From Flavobacteriaceae bacterium (GTDB lineage Bacteria; Bacteroidota; Bacteroidia; Flavobacteriales; Flavobacteriaceae), in NCBI GenBank assembly GCA_949511625.1, contig CATFEX010000046.1:42651-106650 (forward strand): a stretch of DNA of 64,000 bases, written 5' to 3'. Positions 6,315-56,932 of this stretch are shown here, piece after piece. Position 1 is the stretch's first letter. Each line of letters begins with the position of its first letter. A model generated the notes under the pieces. The model did no database searches. It was not told the origin of the DNA and saw only the letters and a program-made list of their open reading frames with translations. A program made the position numbers and the translations under genes.

Positions 6315-7207
6315 AGTCGAGGATGAAACTTTTCCATCACTTTTCTCAAATAACGCGTATCGATATGGGTGTAGATTTCGGTGGTGGTAATGCTTTCATG
6401 GCCAAGTAGAACTTGAATCGTTCTTAGGTCTGCCCCATTTTCTAATAGATGCGTTGCAAAAGAGTGTCGAAAGGTATGTGGGCTTACTTTTTTTTTGATT
6501 CCAGCCTTTTCTGCAGCCTGCTTTACAATAAGAAAAATCATCGTTCGGGTTAGTGCTTTTCCTCTCCGATTTAGAAATACAAAATTTTCATAGCCCTTTT
6601 GAATACTTCGATGAATCTGTATTTCTTTTAGATAGGTGTTAATCTGTTGCATGGCATAGTCACCAAGTGGTACCAGCCGTTGCTTGTCTCCTTTTCCAGT
6701 CACTCGCAGCAATTTTTCTGTTGAATAGATATCTGATTTTTGAAGATTAACCAACTCACTCACACGCAGGCCGCTTCCGTATAATGTTTCTAAAAGCGCT
6801 TTGTTACGGTGACCCTCTGCTTTGCTTAAGTCAATAGTGTCTAATATTTTTTCTACTTCTTCAACACTTAGGGTATCTGGTAATTTACGTCCCAGTTTGG
6901 GAGCCTCCAGCCATTGTGTAGGGAGGTCGTCTCGGTATTTTTCAAAAACCAAGTATTTAAAAAAGCTTTTCAATCCAGAGATTCTTCGGCTCTGAGAATG
7001 GGCACTTTTCTCCTTGGCTTCTTGATAAATAAATTGTTGAATAACGGTGGCGTCAATTTGGATAGGGGAGATTACAATCTTGTGCGTTTCTAAAAAGCGC
7101 ATCAAAGTTAAGACGTCTGTTTTGTAGCTGGTAATTGTGTGCTCAGACAAGCCCCTTTCGATACTCAAGTAAAAACCGAAATCTTCAAGTGCTTTGCTCC
7201 ATTCCAT
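6311..7207 (-). CDS. xerD: site-specific tyrosine recombinase XerD
   Basis: 298 aa with the C-terminal catalytic region 'HTFRHSFATHLLENGADLRTIQVLLGHESITTTEIYTH'. Length and N-terminal SAM-like domain are typical of XerC/D. Confidence 0.85.
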   Translation of the reverse strand: MEWSKALEDFGFYLSIERGLSEHTITSYKTDVLTLMRFLETHKIVISPIQIDATVIQQFIYQEAKEKSAHSQSRRISGLKSFFKYLVFEKYRDDLPTQWLEAPKLGRKLPDTLSVEEVEKILDTIDLSKAEGHRNKALLETLYGSGLRVSELVNLQKSDIYSTEKLLRVTGKGDKQRLVPLGDYAMQQINTYLKEIQIHRSIQKGYENFVFLNRRGKALTRTMIFLIVKQAAEKAGIKKKVSPHTFRHSFATHLLENGADLRTIQVLLGHESITTTEIYTHIDTRYLRKVMEKFHPRL

Positions 7208-7705: not shown

Positions 7706-8947
7706 TCAAATCAGATTTATTTTTCTAAACCGATAACTAGCCCAAAGGCCGATCAGCGAAAAAAAAGCTAAAAAGAGAAATAATTGCTGGTGCCCTCGAA
7801 GCCCTTCAGATCCATCCAGTAGAACTCCCATAATAGGACCTACAAATATATCAGGAGTATAGCCAACCAAAGAAATTAAACCTACCGCTGTCCCTGTAAT
7901 AGTGAAAGGAATCTTTCCTTCTTCCATGGCTGCAAAATAGACTGCTCGCAGCGAATAGGTTCCCACAGCGGTAATTAAAAGGGTCAATAGGAATAAGCCA
8001 ACAGAAGGCGCGGTAACCCAACCCGAAGCAAAAAGCAGGGCTCCTGTGAACATAAAGAGAAAGGAATATTGTAATACTGAAGCATTGGTGGTTCGATCTG
8101 CAAAGACTCCTACAAAAACACAAATAAAAGGACGTAGATACATCTGATAACTACCAACTTTTGCAGCCTCTACTTCATCAAAAAGCATGGCTTCGGCTGC
8201 ATAGAGCGAAAAAACATCAGTGACTTTGTACCCAATATAGGCAGAAAGAACAATCAACATTAGGTAGCGAACACTCCGAAGGCGGAGTGCGGTTTGGATG
8301 TCTTCCCAAGAGCCCATTCTTTTTTTTGGAATTGTTTCTTTGATTTCGAAATCTTTAAAAAAAAAGAAAAGAAGTAAGGCAATACTGACACAAAAAACGG
8401 CGGCAGAAAAGATAACAAATTGAAAAGCTTCTTTTCGTTTAAAAATTGAAATGGTCTCAATTTCGTTGGGGAGAATCCGAGCAAACAAGACCACTCCTAG
8501 GGCTCCCAAACTAGCTGCAATAAAACCCCGACCTCCTTCTAAAAAGCCAAAAGCCTTTCCTTGAGCACTGACACCCCCCCATGCTCTTGTGGCTTTGATC
8601 ATGGCGGACCAAAATAAAAACACAGTTGTAAACCCCCAATAAGCGTAAAGCCATCTAAGCGCATAAACATTGGGAATCGTTGCCATAAAAAATCCACCCG
8701 CGGCAGTGAGCAATAAAGCCGTAGCCATAAGTTTACCTGGGGCGATTCGATCGGCTAGTGTTCCACCGAATAAATAGGAAGCCAAGGCCACAAATCCATA
8801 AACTGAATAACAACTGCCTAATTGGGTGTTGTTTAACTGAAAAACAGATAGAAAAGTGGGACGAAATACGCGGGCCAATACAAAGGGTAATAAAAAGGTA
8901 GCCTCCCCAGCGAGAATAAGTAAAACAATCCGTAGGGGGTTTTTCAT
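7706..8947 (-). CDS. MFS transporter
   Basis: 413 aa, about 12 hydrophobic segments, MFS-like loop 'GGTLADRIAPGK'. Confidence 0.8.
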   Translation of the reverse strand: MKNPLRIVLLILAGEATFLLPFVLARVFRPTFLSVFQLNNTQLGSCYSVYGFVALASYLFGGTLADRIAPGKLMATALLLTAAGGFFMATIPNVYALRWLYAYWGFTTVFLFWSAMIKATRAWGGVSAQGKAFGFLEGGRGFIAASLGALGVVLFARILPNEIETISIFKRKEAFQFVIFSAAVFCVSIALLLFFFFKDFEIKETIPKKRMGSWEDIQTALRLRSVRYLMLIVLSAYIGYKVTDVFSLYAAEAMLFDEVEAAKVGSYQMYLRPFICVFVGVFADRTTNASVLQYSFLFMFTGALLFASGWVTAPSVGLFLLTLLITAVGTYSLRAVYFAAMEEGKIPFTITGTAVGLISLVGYTPDIFVGPIMGVLLDGSEGLRGHQQLFLFLAFFSLIGLWASYRFRKINLI

Positions 8948-16940: not shown

Positions 16941-18764
16941 ATGGCTGAAGCAAAGAAAACCGAAGCACCACAAGAAGTGGAAGAAGCTCCGAAAAAAAAA
17001 GCACCTAAAACTCCTGAAACCACGCCCCAAGAATTTCTTGCCAATTTTAATTGGCACCACTACGAAGAGGGAATTGATGTGGTAGAAGACAAACAATTAA
17101 ACGAATTTGAAACGCTTGTCAAAGAAAACTTTGTCGATACAGCCGATGAGGATGTTATCGAGGGAGAGGTCGTTTACTTGACCGACCGCGAAGCGATTAT
17201 CGATATCAATGCCAAATCTGAAGGAGTTATCTCCTTAAATGAATTCCGCTACAACCCCGACTTAAAAGTGGGGGATAAAGTAGAGGTGATCGTTGATACC
17301 CGTGAAGACCGCACTGGTCAATTGGTACTATCTCACCGAAAGGCAAGAGTCATTAAAGCTTGGGATCGTGTAAATCATGCCCATGATAATGGTGAAATTG
17401 TAAATGGCTTTGTTAAGTGTCGCACTAAAGGGGGAATGATTGTCGATGTTTTTGGAATTGAAGCATTTTTACCTGGCTCACAAATAGATGTGAAGCCCAT
17501 CCGTGATTACGATCAGTATGTCAACAAAACGATGGAATTTAAAGTGGTGAAAATCAATCACGAATTCAAAAATGTAGTGGTTTCCCATAAAGCATTGATC
17601 GAAGCAGACATTGAAGAGCAGAAAAAAGAAATTATCGGCCAGTTGGAAAAAGGACAAGTACTGGAAGGGACTGTGAAAAACATTACCTCCTACGGGGTCT
17701 TTATTGATTTGGGTGGTGTTGATGGTCTTATTCACATTACTGATCTTTCTTGGAGCCGTATCAATCACCCCAGTGAGATATTGGAACTAGACCAGCAACT
17801 CAATGTAGTTATCCTGGATTTTGATGATAATAAATCTAGAATTCAATTGGGTCTCAAACAATTGAGTGAACATCCATGGGATGCCTTGGGTGACAATATC
17901 AAAGAGGGTGAAAAAGTCAAAGGAAAGGTCGTAGTCATTGCCGACTATGGTGCTTTTGTTGAAATAGAAGACGGTGTTGAAGGTTTGGTTCATGTTTCAG
18001 AAATGTCTTGGTCTACGCACTTGCGTTCTGCACAGGACTTTGTCAATGTGGGAGACGAAGTGGAAGCCGAAATATTATCAGTTGATCGCGAAACTCGAAA
18101 AATGTCATTGGGAATCAAGCAATTGTCTCCCGATCCATGGACAGATATTACTTCCAAATATCCTGTTGGTTCAAAACACACAGGAACGGTTCGTAACTTC
18201 ACCAACTTTGGTGTCTTTGTTGAACTTGAGGAAGGCATTGATGGATTGGTATATATCTCCGATTTATCTTGGACTAAAAAAGTGAAGCATCCATCAGAAA
18301 TGATGACCATTGGTGACAGTCTAGAGGTTATTGTCTTGGAATTGAATGTTGAAGGACGTAAGCTGAGTTTGGGTCATAAGCAGACTAAAGACAATCCTTG
18401 GGACAAATACCAAGACGAATTTGCTGTGGATACTGTTCACAAAGCGGCCATTACAGAGATTGTAGATAAAGGAGCTACTATTCAATTCAACGAGGATATC
18501 GTTGCGTTTGTTCCTCAACGTCATATGGATAAAGAGGATGGGAGTAAGCTTTCTAAAGGAGAAGAAGTAGAATTCAAAGTAATCGAATTCAGTAAAGACT
18601 TCAAGCGTGTGGTTGTTTCTCACACCGCAATATTCAGAGAGCAAGAGCGTTCCAATATGAAAAAAGCCGCCAAAAAAGTTGCTGCGTCCAATAATGACAA
18701 AACGACTTTAGGTGATTTGGATGCTTTGGCCGATCTGAAAAAGAAAATGAAAGACAACGAATAA
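16941..18764 (+). CDS. rpsA: 30S ribosomal protein S1
   Basis: 607 aa with six S1 OB-fold repeats ('G.V...T.YGVFIDLGG.DGL.H.S'). Confidence 0.97.
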   Translation: MAEAKKTEAPQEVEEAPKKKAPKTPETTPQEFLANFNWHHYEEGIDVVEDKQLNEFETLVKENFVDTADEDVIEGEVVYLTDREAIIDINAKSEGVISLNEFRYNPDLKVGDKVEVIVDTREDRTGQLVLSHRKARVIKAWDRVNHAHDNGEIVNGFVKCRTKGGMIVDVFGIEAFLPGSQIDVKPIRDYDQYVNKTMEFKVVKINHEFKNVVVSHKALIEADIEEQKKEIIGQLEKGQVLEGTVKNITSYGVFIDLGGVDGLIHITDLSWSRINHPSEILELDQQLNVVILDFDDNKSRIQLGLKQLSEHPWDALGDNIKEGEKVKGKVVVIADYGAFVEIEDGVEGLVHVSEMSWSTHLRSAQDFVNVGDEVEAEILSVDRETRKMSLGIKQLSPDPWTDITSKYPVGSKHTGTVRNFTNFGVFVELEEGIDGLVYISDLSWTKKVKHPSEMMTIGDSLEVIVLELNVEGRKLSLGHKQTKDNPWDKYQDEFAVDTVHKAAITEIVDKGATIQFNEDIVAFVPQRHMDKEDGSKLSKGEEVEFKVIEFSKDFKRVVVSHTAIFREQERSNMKKAAKKVAASNNDKTTLGDLDALADLKKKMKDNE

Positions 18765-27017: not shown

Positions 27018-27665
27018 TTAAAATTCTAAGTCTAATTTCTTACGAAGATCGGAGATTGCAGGATTAATTTCAAGGAGCTTCTGGTATTTCTCTTCTCGGG
27101 AAACTAGATATTCTTTGTTTTGTTCGGGAGTTACCTCTACCTCAAAATTTATTTGGTTGTTTCCTAAAGCTTTTGTGAGGTGTCCTTTTAAGTCAACCCA
27201 TTCTCTTTCGAGTTCTACTTTATTGATGTCACTGGGTACTTTAATATGGATGAGTTGGTCTCCTTTGGGAGTTAGTTGGGCAATAGAGAACAGTGCAGCG
27301 ATATTGCTCTTCCCTTCTTTTTGTTTTTGTTGGGCGTATTGATTCCAAGCTTTTTCAAATTCTTCAAAAGCAAAATGGTTTTTTTGAACTTTCTCTGGTT
27401 TTTTTTGAGCTTGGGTTTGTTGGGCCTCTTTTTTTAAGCGTATACTGGAAAGAGATAAACTGGATACGCCCTCTCCAATAGGGTTTTTTATTTGTATTTT
27501 TTGGGAGGGTTCAACATCTTTTTCTGGTTCCGAGTCATAGGAAATTTCACCTTCTTCAACGATCTCTTTCGGAGTCGCTTTTAGAGGAATCGCCTTTTGA
27601 CTGGTTTCGATTTCAGGTTTAGAAGAAGCAGCTTGTTTATACTGACTGCTAGGAATCAGGCGAAC
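27018..27665 (-). CDS. dnaX: dnaX tau-specific C-terminal extension, in the -1 frame relative to the upstream dnaX ORF and with no start codon of its own
   Basis: My own translation shows 215 sense codons (VRLIPSSQYK...NPAISDLRKKLDLEF) with no ATG/GTG/TTG, ending at TAA 27018-27020. A K/E/P/Q-rich linker is followed by a globular domain, as in full-length tau. It is absent from the ORF track only because it lacks a start codon. Confidence 0.7.
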   Translation of the reverse strand, partial: VRLIPSSQYKQAASSKPEIETSQKAIPLKATPKEIVEEGEISYDSEPEKDVEPSQKIQIKNPIGEGVSSLSLSSIRLKKEAQQTQAQKKPEKVQKNHFAFEEFEKAWNQYAQQKQKEGKSNIAALFSIAQLTPKGDQLIHIKVPSDINKVELEREWVDLKGHLTKALGNNQINFEVEVTPEQNKEYLVSREEKYQKLLEINPAISDLRKKLDLEF

Positions 27666-28747
27666 TTTTTTTTTTCACCCCCTGCGCGAGCGGAAGCTAA
27701 TTGCATCAAGCATAACTCGAGATGCAGGCGTTTGTTGCGAACATTTTTGTAGGTTGATGCAGCTTCTTGAATCCGATCTAATATGAGTAATACATAGGGC
27801 ACTTCTAATTGGCTAGATTGTTTCTGAAAACGTTCTTTATTTGTTTCAGAAGCTGATAATAAAGCTAAAGTTTGTTCATCTTTACATACTAAAAGCTCTC
27901 GAAAATGTGCAGCCAAACCCTCTAAAAACTGCCCCCCATCATAGCCACTGCTTAATACCTGGTCAAGGGTGACCAAAAGCAAGGGGATTTGTTGCTTGAT
28001 AATGAGATCAACCAATTCAAAATAGGTTTCTGTATCAACGATGTTGAGATGCGTTGCAACTAATTTGGCGGTGACTTCAGTATCACTATAAGCAATCATT
28101 CTATCAAACAGGGACAAGGCATCACGCATGGCACCATCCGACTTTTGGGCGATTAATTGTAGCGCTTCCTCTTCAACCTTGATTCCTTTGTCTTTGGCAA
28201 TGGCGGCGAGGTGTTTTTTTGTATCCTCAATTGTCATACGCTTGAAATCGTAAATCTGGCAACGGGACAATATGGTTGGAATGATTTTGTGTTTTTCGGT
28301 AGTGGCAAGTATAAATATGACGTGGGCTGGAGGCTCTTCTAATGTTTTCAAAAAAGCATTGAAAGCAGCAAGGGAAAGCATGTGAACTTCATCTATAATA
28401 TAGACTTTGTAGGATCCTACCTGAGGCGGAATACGCACCTGATCATTGAGACTGCGAATGTCTTCTACGGTATTATTGGAAGCGGCGTCCAGTTCAAAAA
28501 TATTGAATGCAAAGTCATCGTTTACATTGGCTTGGTTCCCTTCATTTATTTTTTTAGCCAGTATTCGAGCGCAGGTGGTTTTGCCTACTCCTCTAGGGCC
28601 ACAAAACAATAGGGCTTGCGCTAATTTATTTTGAGCAATGGATTTTTCAAGAGTAAGTGTTATGGCCTCTTGCCCCACAACATCAGAAAACTCCTGAGGG
28701 CGGTACTTTAAAGCAGATACAATATAGGAATCGTTCGTATCAGACAT
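27656..28747 (-). CDS. dnaX: DNA polymerase III subunit gamma/tau, 0-frame product (domains I-III, 363 aa)
   Basis: 'YIVSALKYRPQEFSDVVGQE', Walker A 'GPRGVGKTT', 'YIIDEVHML' and 'TILSRCQ'. The ATG at 28747 (MSDTND) is preferred over the TTG at 28819. Confidence 0.92.
   Translation of the reverse strand: MSDTNDSYIVSALKYRPQEFSDVVGQEAITLTLEKSIAQNKLAQALLFCGPRGVGKTTCARILAKKINEGNQANVNDDFAFNIFELDAASNNTVEDIRSLNDQVRIPPQVGSYKVYIIDEVHMLSLAAFNAFLKTLEEPPAHVIFILATTEKHKIIPTILSRCQIYDFKRMTIEDTKKHLAAIAKDKGIKVEEEALQLIAQKSDGAMRDALSLFDRMIAYSDTEVTAKLVATHLNIVDTETYFELVDLIIKQQIPLLLVTLDQVLSSGYDGGQFLEGLAAHFRELLVCKDEQTLALLSASETNKERFQKQSSQLEVPYVLLILDRIQEAASTYKNVRNKRLHLELCLMQLASARAGGEKKKFA
27665..27675 (-). other. candidate recoding site: A10-G run containing the heptamer A AAA AAG
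   Basis: The minus strand reads GGU GAA AAA AAA AAG UUC GCC UGA. The plus-strand T run is 27666-27675 and the 0-frame stop is at 27656-27658. Confidence 0.6.
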
Positions 28748-31137: not shown

Positions 31138-32562
31138 ATGTCTGCAAAGGAATTACATGCCGAAATTATTAAAAACAGTGCCTTTGCCTTAACGCATTCG
31201 CAAGAACAATGGGCGGAGGCTATTTCAACTTTTGTTTCTCAGAAAAAAAAAGACAATTTATTCATTTTACAGGGCTACGCTGGAACAGGAAAGTCATCTA
31301 TGGTCGCCCTATTAGTGGCTGCCCTTCCTCGAATCGGACAACGAGCCGTATTGCTTGCACCCACAGGTAGAGCGGCAAAAGTATTATCAAGTTACGCGAG
31401 AAAAAAAGCCTTCACTATACACAAGAAAATATATTTCAGTAATGCGGAGAGTGGTAAACTGCGTTTTAGGTTAAAAAACAATTCGCATCGCAATACACTT
31501 TTTATTGTAGATGAATCTTCGATGATTGGTGAAGACACTTCTGTTGGTCGTCTTTTTGAAAGAGGTTCACTGCTTCACGATTTGGTTAATTATGTGGAAG
31601 AGGGGGACAATTGCAAGTTGATTTTTGTAGGAGATACTGCCCAATTGCCTCCAGTTTCTCTGGTGTTGAGTCCAGCCCTTGACCCCAATAAACTGAATTA
31701 TGAATTCAATAAAGCTGTTGCTGTGACCGTATTGGAGGAAGTTGTTCGCCAACAATTGGACTCTGGAATACTTTTCAATGCCACTCAGTTGAGAGAGCAG
31801 ATTGCTGCGGAAGACCCCAATCAATTTACATTTTCTCTAGAGGGTTATACCGATGTAATCCGGTTACAAGACGGCAATGAGTTTTTAGAATCGCTTTCTC
31901 AAGCACTACATGAAGATAAAGAGGATGCTGCTGTTCTAATTGTGCGTTCCAATAAACGTGCAAATCAATACAACCGGAGCATTCGAGAACGGATTCTTTT
32001 CTTGGAGTCAGATCTTGCTGTGGGAGATAGCCTGATGGTGGTGAAAAATAATTATCATTGGTTGTCTGAAGAAGATCCGGCAGGTTTCATCGCCAATGGG
32101 GATACGCTTCGCGTTCAGAAAATTCATGGATACAAAGAACTGTATGGGTTCAAATTTGCCGAAGTTACTGTGCAAATGATTGATTATCCAGATCAACCTC
32201 CCTTTCAAACAACACTATTGTTAGACACCTTACATAGTAACACGGCTTCTTTGAGTCAAGACCAATCCCAACAACTTTATGAAAAAGTCAATGAAGACTA
32301 CGCACATTTGTCTTCCAAATTCAAACGGTTACAAAAAGTGAGATCCAATCCTTATTTTAATGCACTTCAGGTGAAATACTCCTATGCGATTACCTGTCAC
32401 AAATCTCAAGGGGGACAATGGCGGGAAGTTTTTGTAGAGATGCCCTACCTTCCCGATGGCCCAACTGTAGATTTTTACCGCTGGCTCTATACAGCGATCA
32501 CTCGTGCTCAGGAAAAACTATATCTTATCGGTTTTTCTAAAAATTATTTTTTGGGCAATTAA
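31138..32562 (+). CDS. RecD-like ATP-dependent DNA helicase (AAA_30 / UvrD_C_2)
   Basis: Walker A 'GYAGTGKSS', Walker B 'LFIVDESSM', 'GDTAQLPPV' and the C-terminal 'AITCHKSQGGQW'. ATG at 31138. Confidence 0.85.
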   Translation: MSAKELHAEIIKNSAFALTHSQEQWAEAISTFVSQKKKDNLFILQGYAGTGKSSMVALLVAALPRIGQRAVLLAPTGRAAKVLSSYARKKAFTIHKKIYFSNAESGKLRFRLKNNSHRNTLFIVDESSMIGEDTSVGRLFERGSLLHDLVNYVEEGDNCKLIFVGDTAQLPPVSLVLSPALDPNKLNYEFNKAVAVTVLEEVVRQQLDSGILFNATQLREQIAAEDPNQFTFSLEGYTDVIRLQDGNEFLESLSQALHEDKEDAAVLIVRSNKRANQYNRSIRERILFLESDLAVGDSLMVVKNNYHWLSEEDPAGFIANGDTLRVQKIHGYKELYGFKFAEVTVQMIDYPDQPPFQTTLLLDTLHSNTASLSQDQSQQLYEKVNEDYAHLSSKFKRLQKVRSNPYFNALQVKYSYAITCHKSQGGQWREVFVEMPYLPDGPTVDFYRWLYTAITRAQEKLYLIGFSKNYFLGN

Positions 32563-56215: not shown

Positions 56216-56386
56216 TATTTGATTTTTTTTGATATTTCAAATGTACTAAAACATCCTTAATAATCTTTTTGTCAACATTGATCCAATATTCTTTTCCAAA
56301 CTAGAATAGCAGTTAAAAAAATGGATGTGTAGGCTATTAAGAAAATGAAATACTTTTTGAATAGAGTTGTACATTTGAAAAAAAAA

Positions 56387-56932
56387 ATGAAATACAATAA
56401 GCTAATCTTTTTGACACTTTCAATAGCAATCACCCTCAGCAGTTGTAACTTTTATCCCTCAAAGCCAGAGGTAAAAGTAGTCTCGCCCAGTCCACAATCG
56501 CAAGCCAATACCCTTGAAGTTACCAGGGCCTCTGACCCTATTTTAGCTGGCTACATGGCAATTAAAAATGCCATGGTAGCAGATGATAGTCTTTCGGTAT
56601 CATTGGCAATTGAAACTTTGCATTCATCAATTGAGGAAAGGATCAAAAATTCCAAACAGAGTACAGACAATGCCCTATATGTAAAAATGGAATCTCTTGC
56701 ACTAGAGATGAAGAATCAAAATTTTGAGCAGCAACGAATGAGTTTAATCGATCTTACGGCAGCCCTTCTCGATTGGAATAAATCCAACCCCTCTGCTGAA
56801 AAAATTTACCTTCAGTATTGCCCTATGTATCAAGGAGGAAACTATTGGTTGAGTATGAATGAGCAGGTACTGAATCCGTATTATGGCAGTAAAATGCTAC
56901 GTTGTGGGGTAGTGGAGAAAGTGCTTAACTAG
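56387..56932 (+). CDS. DUF3347 domain-containing lipoprotein
   Basis: Lipobox 'TLSSC' after the ATG at 56387, plus the 'YMAIKNAMVADD' block typical of DUF3347. A TAcaTTTG box lies 10 nt upstream of the ATG. Confidence 0.6.
   Translation: MKYNKLIFLTLSIAITLSSCNFYPSKPEVKVVSPSPQSQANTLEVTRASDPILAGYMAIKNAMVADDSLSVSLAIETLHSSIEERIKNSKQSTDNALYVKMESLALEMKNQNFEQQRMSLIDLTAALLDWNKSNPSAEKIYLQYCPMYQGGNYWLSMNEQVLNPYYGSKMLRCGVVEKVLN

Follow-up and report, generated by a model that had tools for sequence, protein, structure and literature searches.

How does a bacterium obtain the tau subunit of its DNA polymerase III when no single reading frame of its dnaX gene encodes it? The question is raised by a stretch of 64,000 nucleotides from a Flavobacteriaceae bacterium (contig CATFEX010000046.1; the whole stretch is hereafter called the window), on the minus strand of which dnaX is interrupted at a run of ten A's followed by a G (A10-G), so that standard decoding gives a short, gamma-like product and the part specific to tau lies in the -1 frame. 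Tau, an essential subunit, links the clamp loader with the replicative polymerase, and since it can be reached here only by a decoding "error", the genome would depend on programmed slippage of high efficiency. The analysis showed that the junction is a genuine and conserved recoding cassette in dnaX, being neither an error nor a pseudogene, and we hold with high confidence that it is a real programmed recoding signal, be it transcriptional or ribosomal; slippage by RNA polymerase is considered somewhat probable as the main route to tau. The arrangement as such is already known, having been published as a prediction in 2013 (PMC3711429).

Anatomy of the junction and identity of the two halves

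The gamma frame of dnaX starts on the minus strand with the ATG at 28747 and encodes 363 amino acids (MSDTNDSY...GGEKKKFA), which cover clamp-loader domains I-III, before it ends at the TGA at 27658-27656 (the zero-frame open reading frame, or ORF, thus occupies 27656..28747). Its 3' end is spelled GGT GAA AAA AAA AAG TTC GCC TGA. The A10 run within it, which is the candidate slippage tract, lies at 27666..27675 (T10 on the plus strand) and is read in the frame GAA AAA AAA AAG, with G-A10-G at 27676-27665; the last six A's of the run and G27665 form the zero-frame heptamer A_AAA_AAG (27671-27665), the E. coli-type motif for a -1 ribosomal shift. The zero-frame stop is placed two sense codons past AAG and overlaps the tau-frame codons CTG ATT (as C TGA TT), which specify the L-I of a conserved [LI]-I-P motif, while the third (+1) frame is ended five codons past the run by a TAG at 27649..27651. 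On the 5' side, a TGA in the -1 (tau) frame at 27675..27677 abuts the run and seals the tau frame upstream, so that tau can be entered only at the run.

The tau-specific extension in the -1 frame spans 27018..27665 on the minus strand and comprises 215 codons, starting with VRLIPSSQYK, and a TAA at 27020-27018. It lacks a start codon, with none of its 215 sense codons being ATG, GTG, or TTG, and the ORF listing of the window shows no minus-strand ORF ending there. When the 645-nucleotide (nt) extension was shuffled, none of 20000 shuffles was free of stops. The length of the A run by itself is no argument, since a run of ten is not improbable in such an AT-rich window: two runs of A or T of at least 10 were seen in the 64 kb (40% G+C) against about three expected under a first-order model. 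The run in dnaX is the sole one of at least 10 within coding sequence in the window, because the other is located in a 5' leader. That other A10 (56378-56387, plus strand) belongs to an A-rich, non-coding leader and abuts the ATG at 56388 of a lipoprotein-like ORF (MKYNKLIFLTLSIAITLSSC...).

Both halves were identified by homology. The upstream ORF matched the Pfam families DNA_pol3_delta2 (PF13177, 4.6e-35), DNAX_ATPase_lid (PF22608, 2.8e-14), and DNA_pol3_gamma3 (PF12169, 4.5e-09), and scored 376 bits against TIGR02397 dnaX_nterm, for which the cutoff is 250. The extension alone matched NCBIfam PRK14971 (DNA polymerase III subunit gamma/tau, Bacteroidota-type) at positions 412-612 of 614 with E=1.2e-22, and the conceptual 576-amino-acid fusion reached 413.7 bits against the DnaX equivalog PRK05563 (curated cutoff 400), with residues 14-545 aligned. 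In tblastn searches the extension domain was found to form the tail of 42 uninterrupted Flavobacteriaceae DnaX genes, with which it is collinear. By sequence homology, the extension is the tau-specific C-terminal region of DnaX.

The AlphaFold model (AF2) of the extension is disordered over residues 1-95, followed by a confidently predicted alpha/beta domain at residues 100-215. The first part is a linker rich in K/E/P/Q (extension residues 1-99, 27369..27665, minus strand), which is predicted to be disordered with a predicted local distance difference test score (pLDDT) below 50 at residues 1-67, and the second is a C-terminal globular alpha/beta domain (residues 100-215, 27021..27368, minus strand) with pLDDT mostly 80-93, which is DUF8439/PF28557 in precomputed Pfam. 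A local Pfam scan of the extension gave no significant family (DUF8439 postdates that Pfam copy), and the extension profile gave only chance matches against the PDB sequences (E about 1). The best Foldseek matches of domain 100-215 were all weak (E=0.02-0.18), none reaching 0.001, and consisted of DnaA domain I (4tps, 2e0g), DciA (8a3v), and 5fku_E, the C-terminal chain of E. coli tau. Marsin et al. (PMC8216460) grouped the type-II KH folds of DnaA domain I and DciA with DnaX domain V. The modeled globular domain is thus a likely counterpart of tau domain V, which binds Pol III alpha, an assignment which we keep at consistent, not proven, because the Foldseek matches are weak. Taken with these results, the original prediction, which had been made from the letters of the DNA and had proposed the split at A10-G with its coordinates, the zero-frame heptamer, the polarity reversed relative to E. 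coli (zero frame gamma, -1 frame tau), and an extension without start codon having the linker-and-globule build of a tau tail, proved exact to the base for the minus-strand reading 28747..27656, exact for the extension peptide, and sound as regards homology and architecture.

The linker contains a segment, GVSSLSLSSIRLKKEA (27423-27470, minus strand), of the nearly invariant form GVSSLSLSSI-x-LKKEA, which is kept in 12 of 12 aligned relatives while the rest of the linker is variable; S68, S71, S73, S74, I75, K79, and E80 are the invariant linker residues. The motif may serve as a partner-binding peptide.

A protein search with the extension returned 63 matches, every one of them a stand-alone short ORF (122-255 amino acids) with PF28557 (DUF8439), and no full-length DnaX was among these 63. 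Judging from these matches, PF28557 appears to be a collection of downstream ORFs orphaned by the splitting of dnaX genes, and thus to correspond to the tau C-terminal region (PRK14971 412-612) instead of forming a protein family in its own right. Gene callers break such a dnaX into a "short DnaX" and an orphan ORF, and it is these orphans which appear to have been gathered in Pfam as DUF8439, a family to which no function is assigned; once the cassette is recognized, a core replication gene can be annotated correctly in a large proportion of the marine Flavobacteriaceae.

The run and the tau frame in related genomes

The organism of the window is an uncultured marine member of the Flavobacteriaceae and is about 97% identical to the metagenome-assembled genome (MAG) JAYQMQ01. 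On the 1.48-Mb contig L011, which belongs to a Flavobacteriaceae MAG, 3.5 kb align to the window at 97.0% DNA identity and the G-A10-G junction is the same; the low protein identity of L011 stems from nanopore indels. Independent metagenome contigs share the synteny DUF3822, methyltransferase, dnaX (354-368 amino acids), overlapping DUF8439 ORF, miaE, ppx, and ppk. When relatives were scanned with a single genome for each GTDB species, 80 Flavobacteriaceae loci were obtained, of which 78 hold both dnaX halves. The gene is split in 36 of these 78 species representatives, with tau in the -1 frame behind an exact G-A10-G in 16, in the -1 frame without any A run in 18, and in the +1 frame in 2. 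The other 42 are single ORFs of 560-690 codons and include Kordia, Lacinutrix, Psychroflexus, Gilvibacter, and Polaribacter. The 16 scan loci with A10-G and -1 tau, the window, and L003 (the metagenome contigs L003 and L004 have identical junctions and were counted once) make up a set of 18 "-1" loci, and the run-bearing loci number 63 in all, of which 42 have tau in the zero frame, 18 in the -1 frame, and 3 in the +1 frame.

The results showed that the run is unbroken in all 63 run-bearing loci, whatever the frame of tau, with A10 in 52, A11 in 10, and A13 in 1. All 42 uninterrupted genes bear an A10 or A11 run at the homologous site (for example L016, L021, L023, L031, L033, and L035), and in Kordia algicida OT-1 (L065, about 2260-2300) the junction reads GAT GGA GAA AAA AAA AAT AGC. 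The Glu and Lys codons within the run are never GAG or AAG, and the base after the run differs among the loci, being G, T, or C. The 18 "-1" loci have, without exception, exactly A10 with a G on both sides, and the zero-frame stop stands exactly 10 nt past the run in 17 of them. Behind the run, one frame is open for 196-287 codons in the run-bearing loci, except in L011, an indel-ridden nanopore assembly, and both non-tau frames end within 1-14 codons (3 for the zero frame and 5 for the +1 frame in the window). The codons of the conserved [LI]-I-P motif enclose the stop of the frame that lies one base ahead of tau.

Evidence of selection on the shifted frame was obtained from the variability directly 3' of the run. 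In the split clade the entropy peaks at the third codon position of the -1 frame (1.53 vs 0.99 and 1.31), and in the uninterrupted relatives the peak over the same region falls on the third position of the zero frame. The -1 frame is thus under coding selection in the clade of the window.

On a neighbor-joining tree built on the DnaX N-terminal domain, the window groups with the "-1" A10-G genomes, and the split state is consistent with clades. The +1 loci are found at several places on this tree: L001 (3009-3019) and L002 (1225-1235), both A11-T, adjoin L008 (A10-G, -1), L086 adjoins L087 (-1), and L071 (A13) is nested among A11 uninterrupted genes. The tree suggests that the tau frame has changed at least five times, moving among 0, -1, and +1. 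For tau to be made from L001 and L002, which were found independently in a JGI metagenome and in an SRA run, one A less or two extra are needed. Another pair differs by a single A, with L066 (about 2250-2300) being A11-G and uninterrupted and its sister L049 (2422-2431) being A10-G and split; this difference is due to a true change of polarity or else to a miscounted homopolymer in one MAG.

In an abundant, monophyletic clade of marine Flavobacteriaceae, dnaX is split with tau in the -1 frame and no A run is present, the junction reading TTC GGG GAA AAG TAA. It consists of L005 (3001-3043), L006, L007, L014-L019, L022, L024, L026, L028, L029, L032, L034, L036, L038, L051, L054, L059, and L077, among which L019 and L059 are ordinary members at the junction and have an indel or N-run further downstream. 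The heptamer variants G_GGA_AAG and G_GGA_AAA occur, and a slippery heptamer is absent from L024 and L077. In the tau frame of the clade an ATG is conserved 46 nt before the gamma stop, and over the final 60 nt the zero-frame synonymous-site entropy falls to 0.35-0.41 from values of about 1.0-1.5, roughly a threefold reduction that is restricted to this clade. The drop in the alignment suggests either dual coding, in which the C-terminal protein would have its own initiation, or a stimulator of frameshifting on the 5' side, and the clade may have moved to ribosomal frameshifting on a heptamer only or to a truly separate tau C-terminal protein.

A tentative history, which we regard as possible but less likely than not, is that the A10 cassette is ancestral to Flavobacteriaceae dnaX, that the frame of tau hopped among 0, -1, and +1 on at least five occasions while the run stayed invariant, and that the run-less clade lost the run altogether. 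Repeated hopping of this kind should be tolerated only if slippage fills all three frames at comparable levels. If the history is true, the dnaX genes of the family would form a naturally occurring set of "polarity-swapped" alleles, and this in an essential gene. The invariant run, the movable tau frame, and the run-less clade together provide a clean system in which to compare transcriptional and ribosomal slippage in Bacteroidota.

Proposed RNA-polymerase slippage and its alternatives

On an unslipped mRNA of the window, translation would end two codons past A10 and yield the 363-amino-acid gamma-like clamp-loader subunit, and tau (576 amino acids, junction ...GGEKKK/VRLIPSSQYK...) would arise only upon a -1 move of the frame at the run. 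That the frame moves at all, at which level, and in what ratio is inferred; most likely, RNA polymerase would slip on the T10 template and give A11 (or A8, A14) mRNAs in which both halves are fused in-frame. This would be the mechanism of Thermus thermophilus dnaX, the difference being that the frame in the genome assigns gamma to the unslipped transcript. A -1 ribosomal shift at the in-frame A_AAA_AAG may add to the supply of tau, and such a shift and an A11 transcript would yield the identical junction sequence, GEKKKVRLIPSSQYK.

The family-wide pattern carries the case for slippage by RNA polymerase. An invariant run of at least 10 A's without GAG or AAG, a variable next base, the presence of +1 lineages, and the closure of both non-tau frames point to a process which depends on length and is indifferent to frame. 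It is the run itself that is the selected element, and a mechanism using only the heptamer would need no avoidance of GAG and AAG; many of the uninterrupted genes have A10-T and hence a poor A_AAA_AAT heptamer, and the +1 lineages cannot be served by a -1 ribosomal shift. The lack of a conserved 3' hairpin and of constraint on flanking synonymous sites also argues for slippage of RNA polymerase. The 126 nt downstream in the window showed no excess folding (z=0.23, with 111 of 200 shuffles folding equally well or better), RNAalifold found 0 conserved pairs among 17 distinct "-1" A10-G sequences and nothing conserved in 18 run-less sequences, and no extra constraint was found at the synonymous sites flanking the run in the split A10-G clade. 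By analogy with Thermus, the uninterrupted Flavobacteriaceae genes probably make gamma by slippage. Occurrence of both shift directions in the same gene is a criterion for transcriptional realignment according to Antonov et al. (PMC3711429), who proposed this mechanism for the two-ORF dnaX genes with A10 in Flavobacterium, Cytophaga, and Chlorobium.

The alternative that survives best is -1 programmed ribosomal frameshifting on A_AAA_AAG as the chief source of tau, similar to E. coli with the polarity reversed, in which the P- and A-site tRNA-Lys would re-pair one base back and translation would continue with GTT as the next codon to the TAA at 27018-27020. We consider this rather unlikely as the main route, and several observations which speak for it also weigh against slippage by RNA polymerase. 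The site in the window is also a perfect A_AAA_AAG, exact and correctly framed, and a G follows the run in 18 of 18 "-1" run-bearing loci, as ribosomal frameshifting would favor, even though this evidence is weak because the 18 loci represent only about two independent origins. In addition, a G-rich stretch is found ahead of the run (GGGGG or GGAG), heptamers resembling G_GGA_AAG persist at the site in the sister clade that lacks the A run, so that the route may exist in the family, and the 2016 review by Atkins et al. (PMC5009743) treats the reversed dnaX genes as candidates for ribosomal frameshifting.

The ribosomal route is weakened by the absence of a downstream hairpin, both in the window and as a conserved feature, and by the position of the G-rich stretch, which lies about 5 nt upstream as compared with about 10 nt for the Shine-Dalgarno-like stimulator of E. 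coli. Bacteroidota ribosomes rely little on Shine-Dalgarno pairing. The GGGGG about 5 nt 5' of the heptamer also encodes a conserved Gly-Gly/Gly-Glu, and the flanking synonymous sites are free of extra constraint. The route further leaves unexplained why at least 10 A's, and not 7, are invariant in 63 loci, and it explains neither the +1 lineages nor the A10-T uninterrupted genes. The window contains no Lys tRNA, only Ser and Arg tRNAs being present (a tRNA-Lys(CUU) would depress slippage on AAG).

Further points weigh against slippage by RNA polymerase as the main route. A literature search found no transcript or protein evidence and no experimental work on recoding in Bacteroidota dnaX. Sense-strand runs of A8-A9 are present inside other long ORFs of the window, and according to Baranov et al. 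(PMC1088944) AT-rich genomes which do not avoid such runs may have less slip-prone polymerases. No obvious avoidance of 9-mers was seen in coding sequence, which bears on how prone the RNA polymerase is to slip and is uninformative or mildly unfavorable to this route. The A9/T9 runs inside other long ORFs are located at 6488-6496, 8357-8365, 16992-17000, and 31243-31251, two of them near annotated 5' ends. The original prediction had set transcriptional and ribosomal slippage side by side; the evidence from the family leans to the former and away from frameshifting of the E. coli style.

It is very improbable that the C-terminal part is a separate polypeptide arising from internal or non-canonical initiation, or that it is unexpressed and dnaX simply truncated. 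The run-less clade, with its conserved ATG in the C-terminal frame 46 nt upstream of the gamma stop and its added synonymous-site constraint over the overlap, lends some color to separate initiation; in the window, however, the 215 codons of the -1 frame include no ATG, GTG, or TTG, a TGA closes that frame right before the run, and 27 columns are invariant across 12 extension sequences, a conservation at the protein level which indicates that the extension is expressed. In the Pol III holoenzyme, moreover, tau can join the polymerase to the loader only when it is attached to the clamp-loader body.

Least probable of all, and to be put aside, is a homopolymer error of sequencing or assembly behind which the true genome would have A11 and one ORF of 576 codons, for although 10-base homopolymers are error-prone on some platforms and the sisters L066 (A11-G, uninterrupted) and L049 (A10-G, split) differ in just this respect, the exact A10-G with the -1 split was found in 17 other loci, which come from different projects and assemblers, finished genomes carry A10-G at the two-ORF dnaX junction (PMC3711429, Fig. 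S3), the in-frame relatives have the same A10, so that there is no systematic under-calling, the zero-frame stop is kept at a conserved distance from the run, and the split state is consistent within clades on the tree. The sharing of the junction by 17 further loci and by the 97%-identical L011, an independent assembly, makes a miscall untenable, and the null hypothesis of A10 called for A11, which the original prediction had itself raised, was rejected on this ground and on that of the finished genomes; the conservation in relatives which it had looked to was borne out by the same 17 G-A10-G "-1" loci and by the uninterrupted genes, all of which keep the run.

Comparison with known dnaX and slippage systems

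Two-ORF dnaX genes of reversed polarity are known from Bacteroidetes, Chlorobi, and Verrucomicrobia (Antonov et al. 2013, NAR 41:6514, PMC3711429; Atkins et al. 2016, PMC5009743). Antonov et al. (PMC3711429) reported 17 genes from 12 genera with a -1 frameshift at the DNA level, nine of which have A10, and A10-G is found in their Fig. S3 in Flavobacterium johnsoniae, F. psychrophilum, Cytophaga hutchinsonii, and several Chlorobium spp. (Chlorobi); the published case is a bioinformatic one. The window shares with this type an N-terminal ORF which ends just past the poly-A, a tau part in the -1 frame at the DNA level, and the requirement of recoding for the longer product, and it shows no essential difference, being another species of the same kind. 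DnaX domains I-III upstream, A10-G with a close stop, a tau-homologous ORF in the -1 frame, and conservation across species were all found in the window, and as these are all the testable defining features of the class, the window belongs to it. The run in all uninterrupted relatives, the repeated moves of the tau frame including those to +1, and the run-less clade are not described in PMC3711429 or PMC5009743.

The dnaX of E. coli uses the heptamer A_AAA_AAG for a -1 ribosomal shift (PMC3711429). The common ground is the zero-frame A_AAA_AAG and two products, predicted ones in the window, with domains I-III in common. The window differs from E. coli in its reversed polarity, in having no 3' stem-loop, in its apparent lack of a correctly spaced Shine-Dalgarno-like element, and in its run of 10 A's, conserved as such, in comparison to 6 in E. 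coli. Of the E. coli cassette, the window shares only the heptamer.

In Shigella flexneri mxiE, as that gene is cited in PMC1088944, transcriptional slippage fuses two overlapping ORFs. The similarity lies in the need for slippage to obtain a longer functional product from two overlapping frames; as far as that citation goes, mxiE differs in having a U/T run, in encoding a non-essential regulator, and in a slippage which is regulatory rather than setting a fixed ratio of two products.

The closest mechanistic parallel proposed here is the dnaX of Thermus thermophilus, in which, by the account of Larsen et al. (2000) given in PMC1088944, transcriptional slippage operates with tau as the templated frame and gamma as the product of slipped transcripts. 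According to the same account, the two genes have in common an A run of at least 9 at the gamma/tau boundary, close stops in both non-tau frames, and a similar upstream context of GGAG/GGGG before the run. They differ, within what that account describes, in that Thermus has A9 and templates tau, whereas the window has A10 and templates gamma, slipped transcripts being needed for tau and slippage being predicted here. Since tau is not in the templated frame, we call the window Thermus-like with reversed polarity and not a member of the Thermus cassette.

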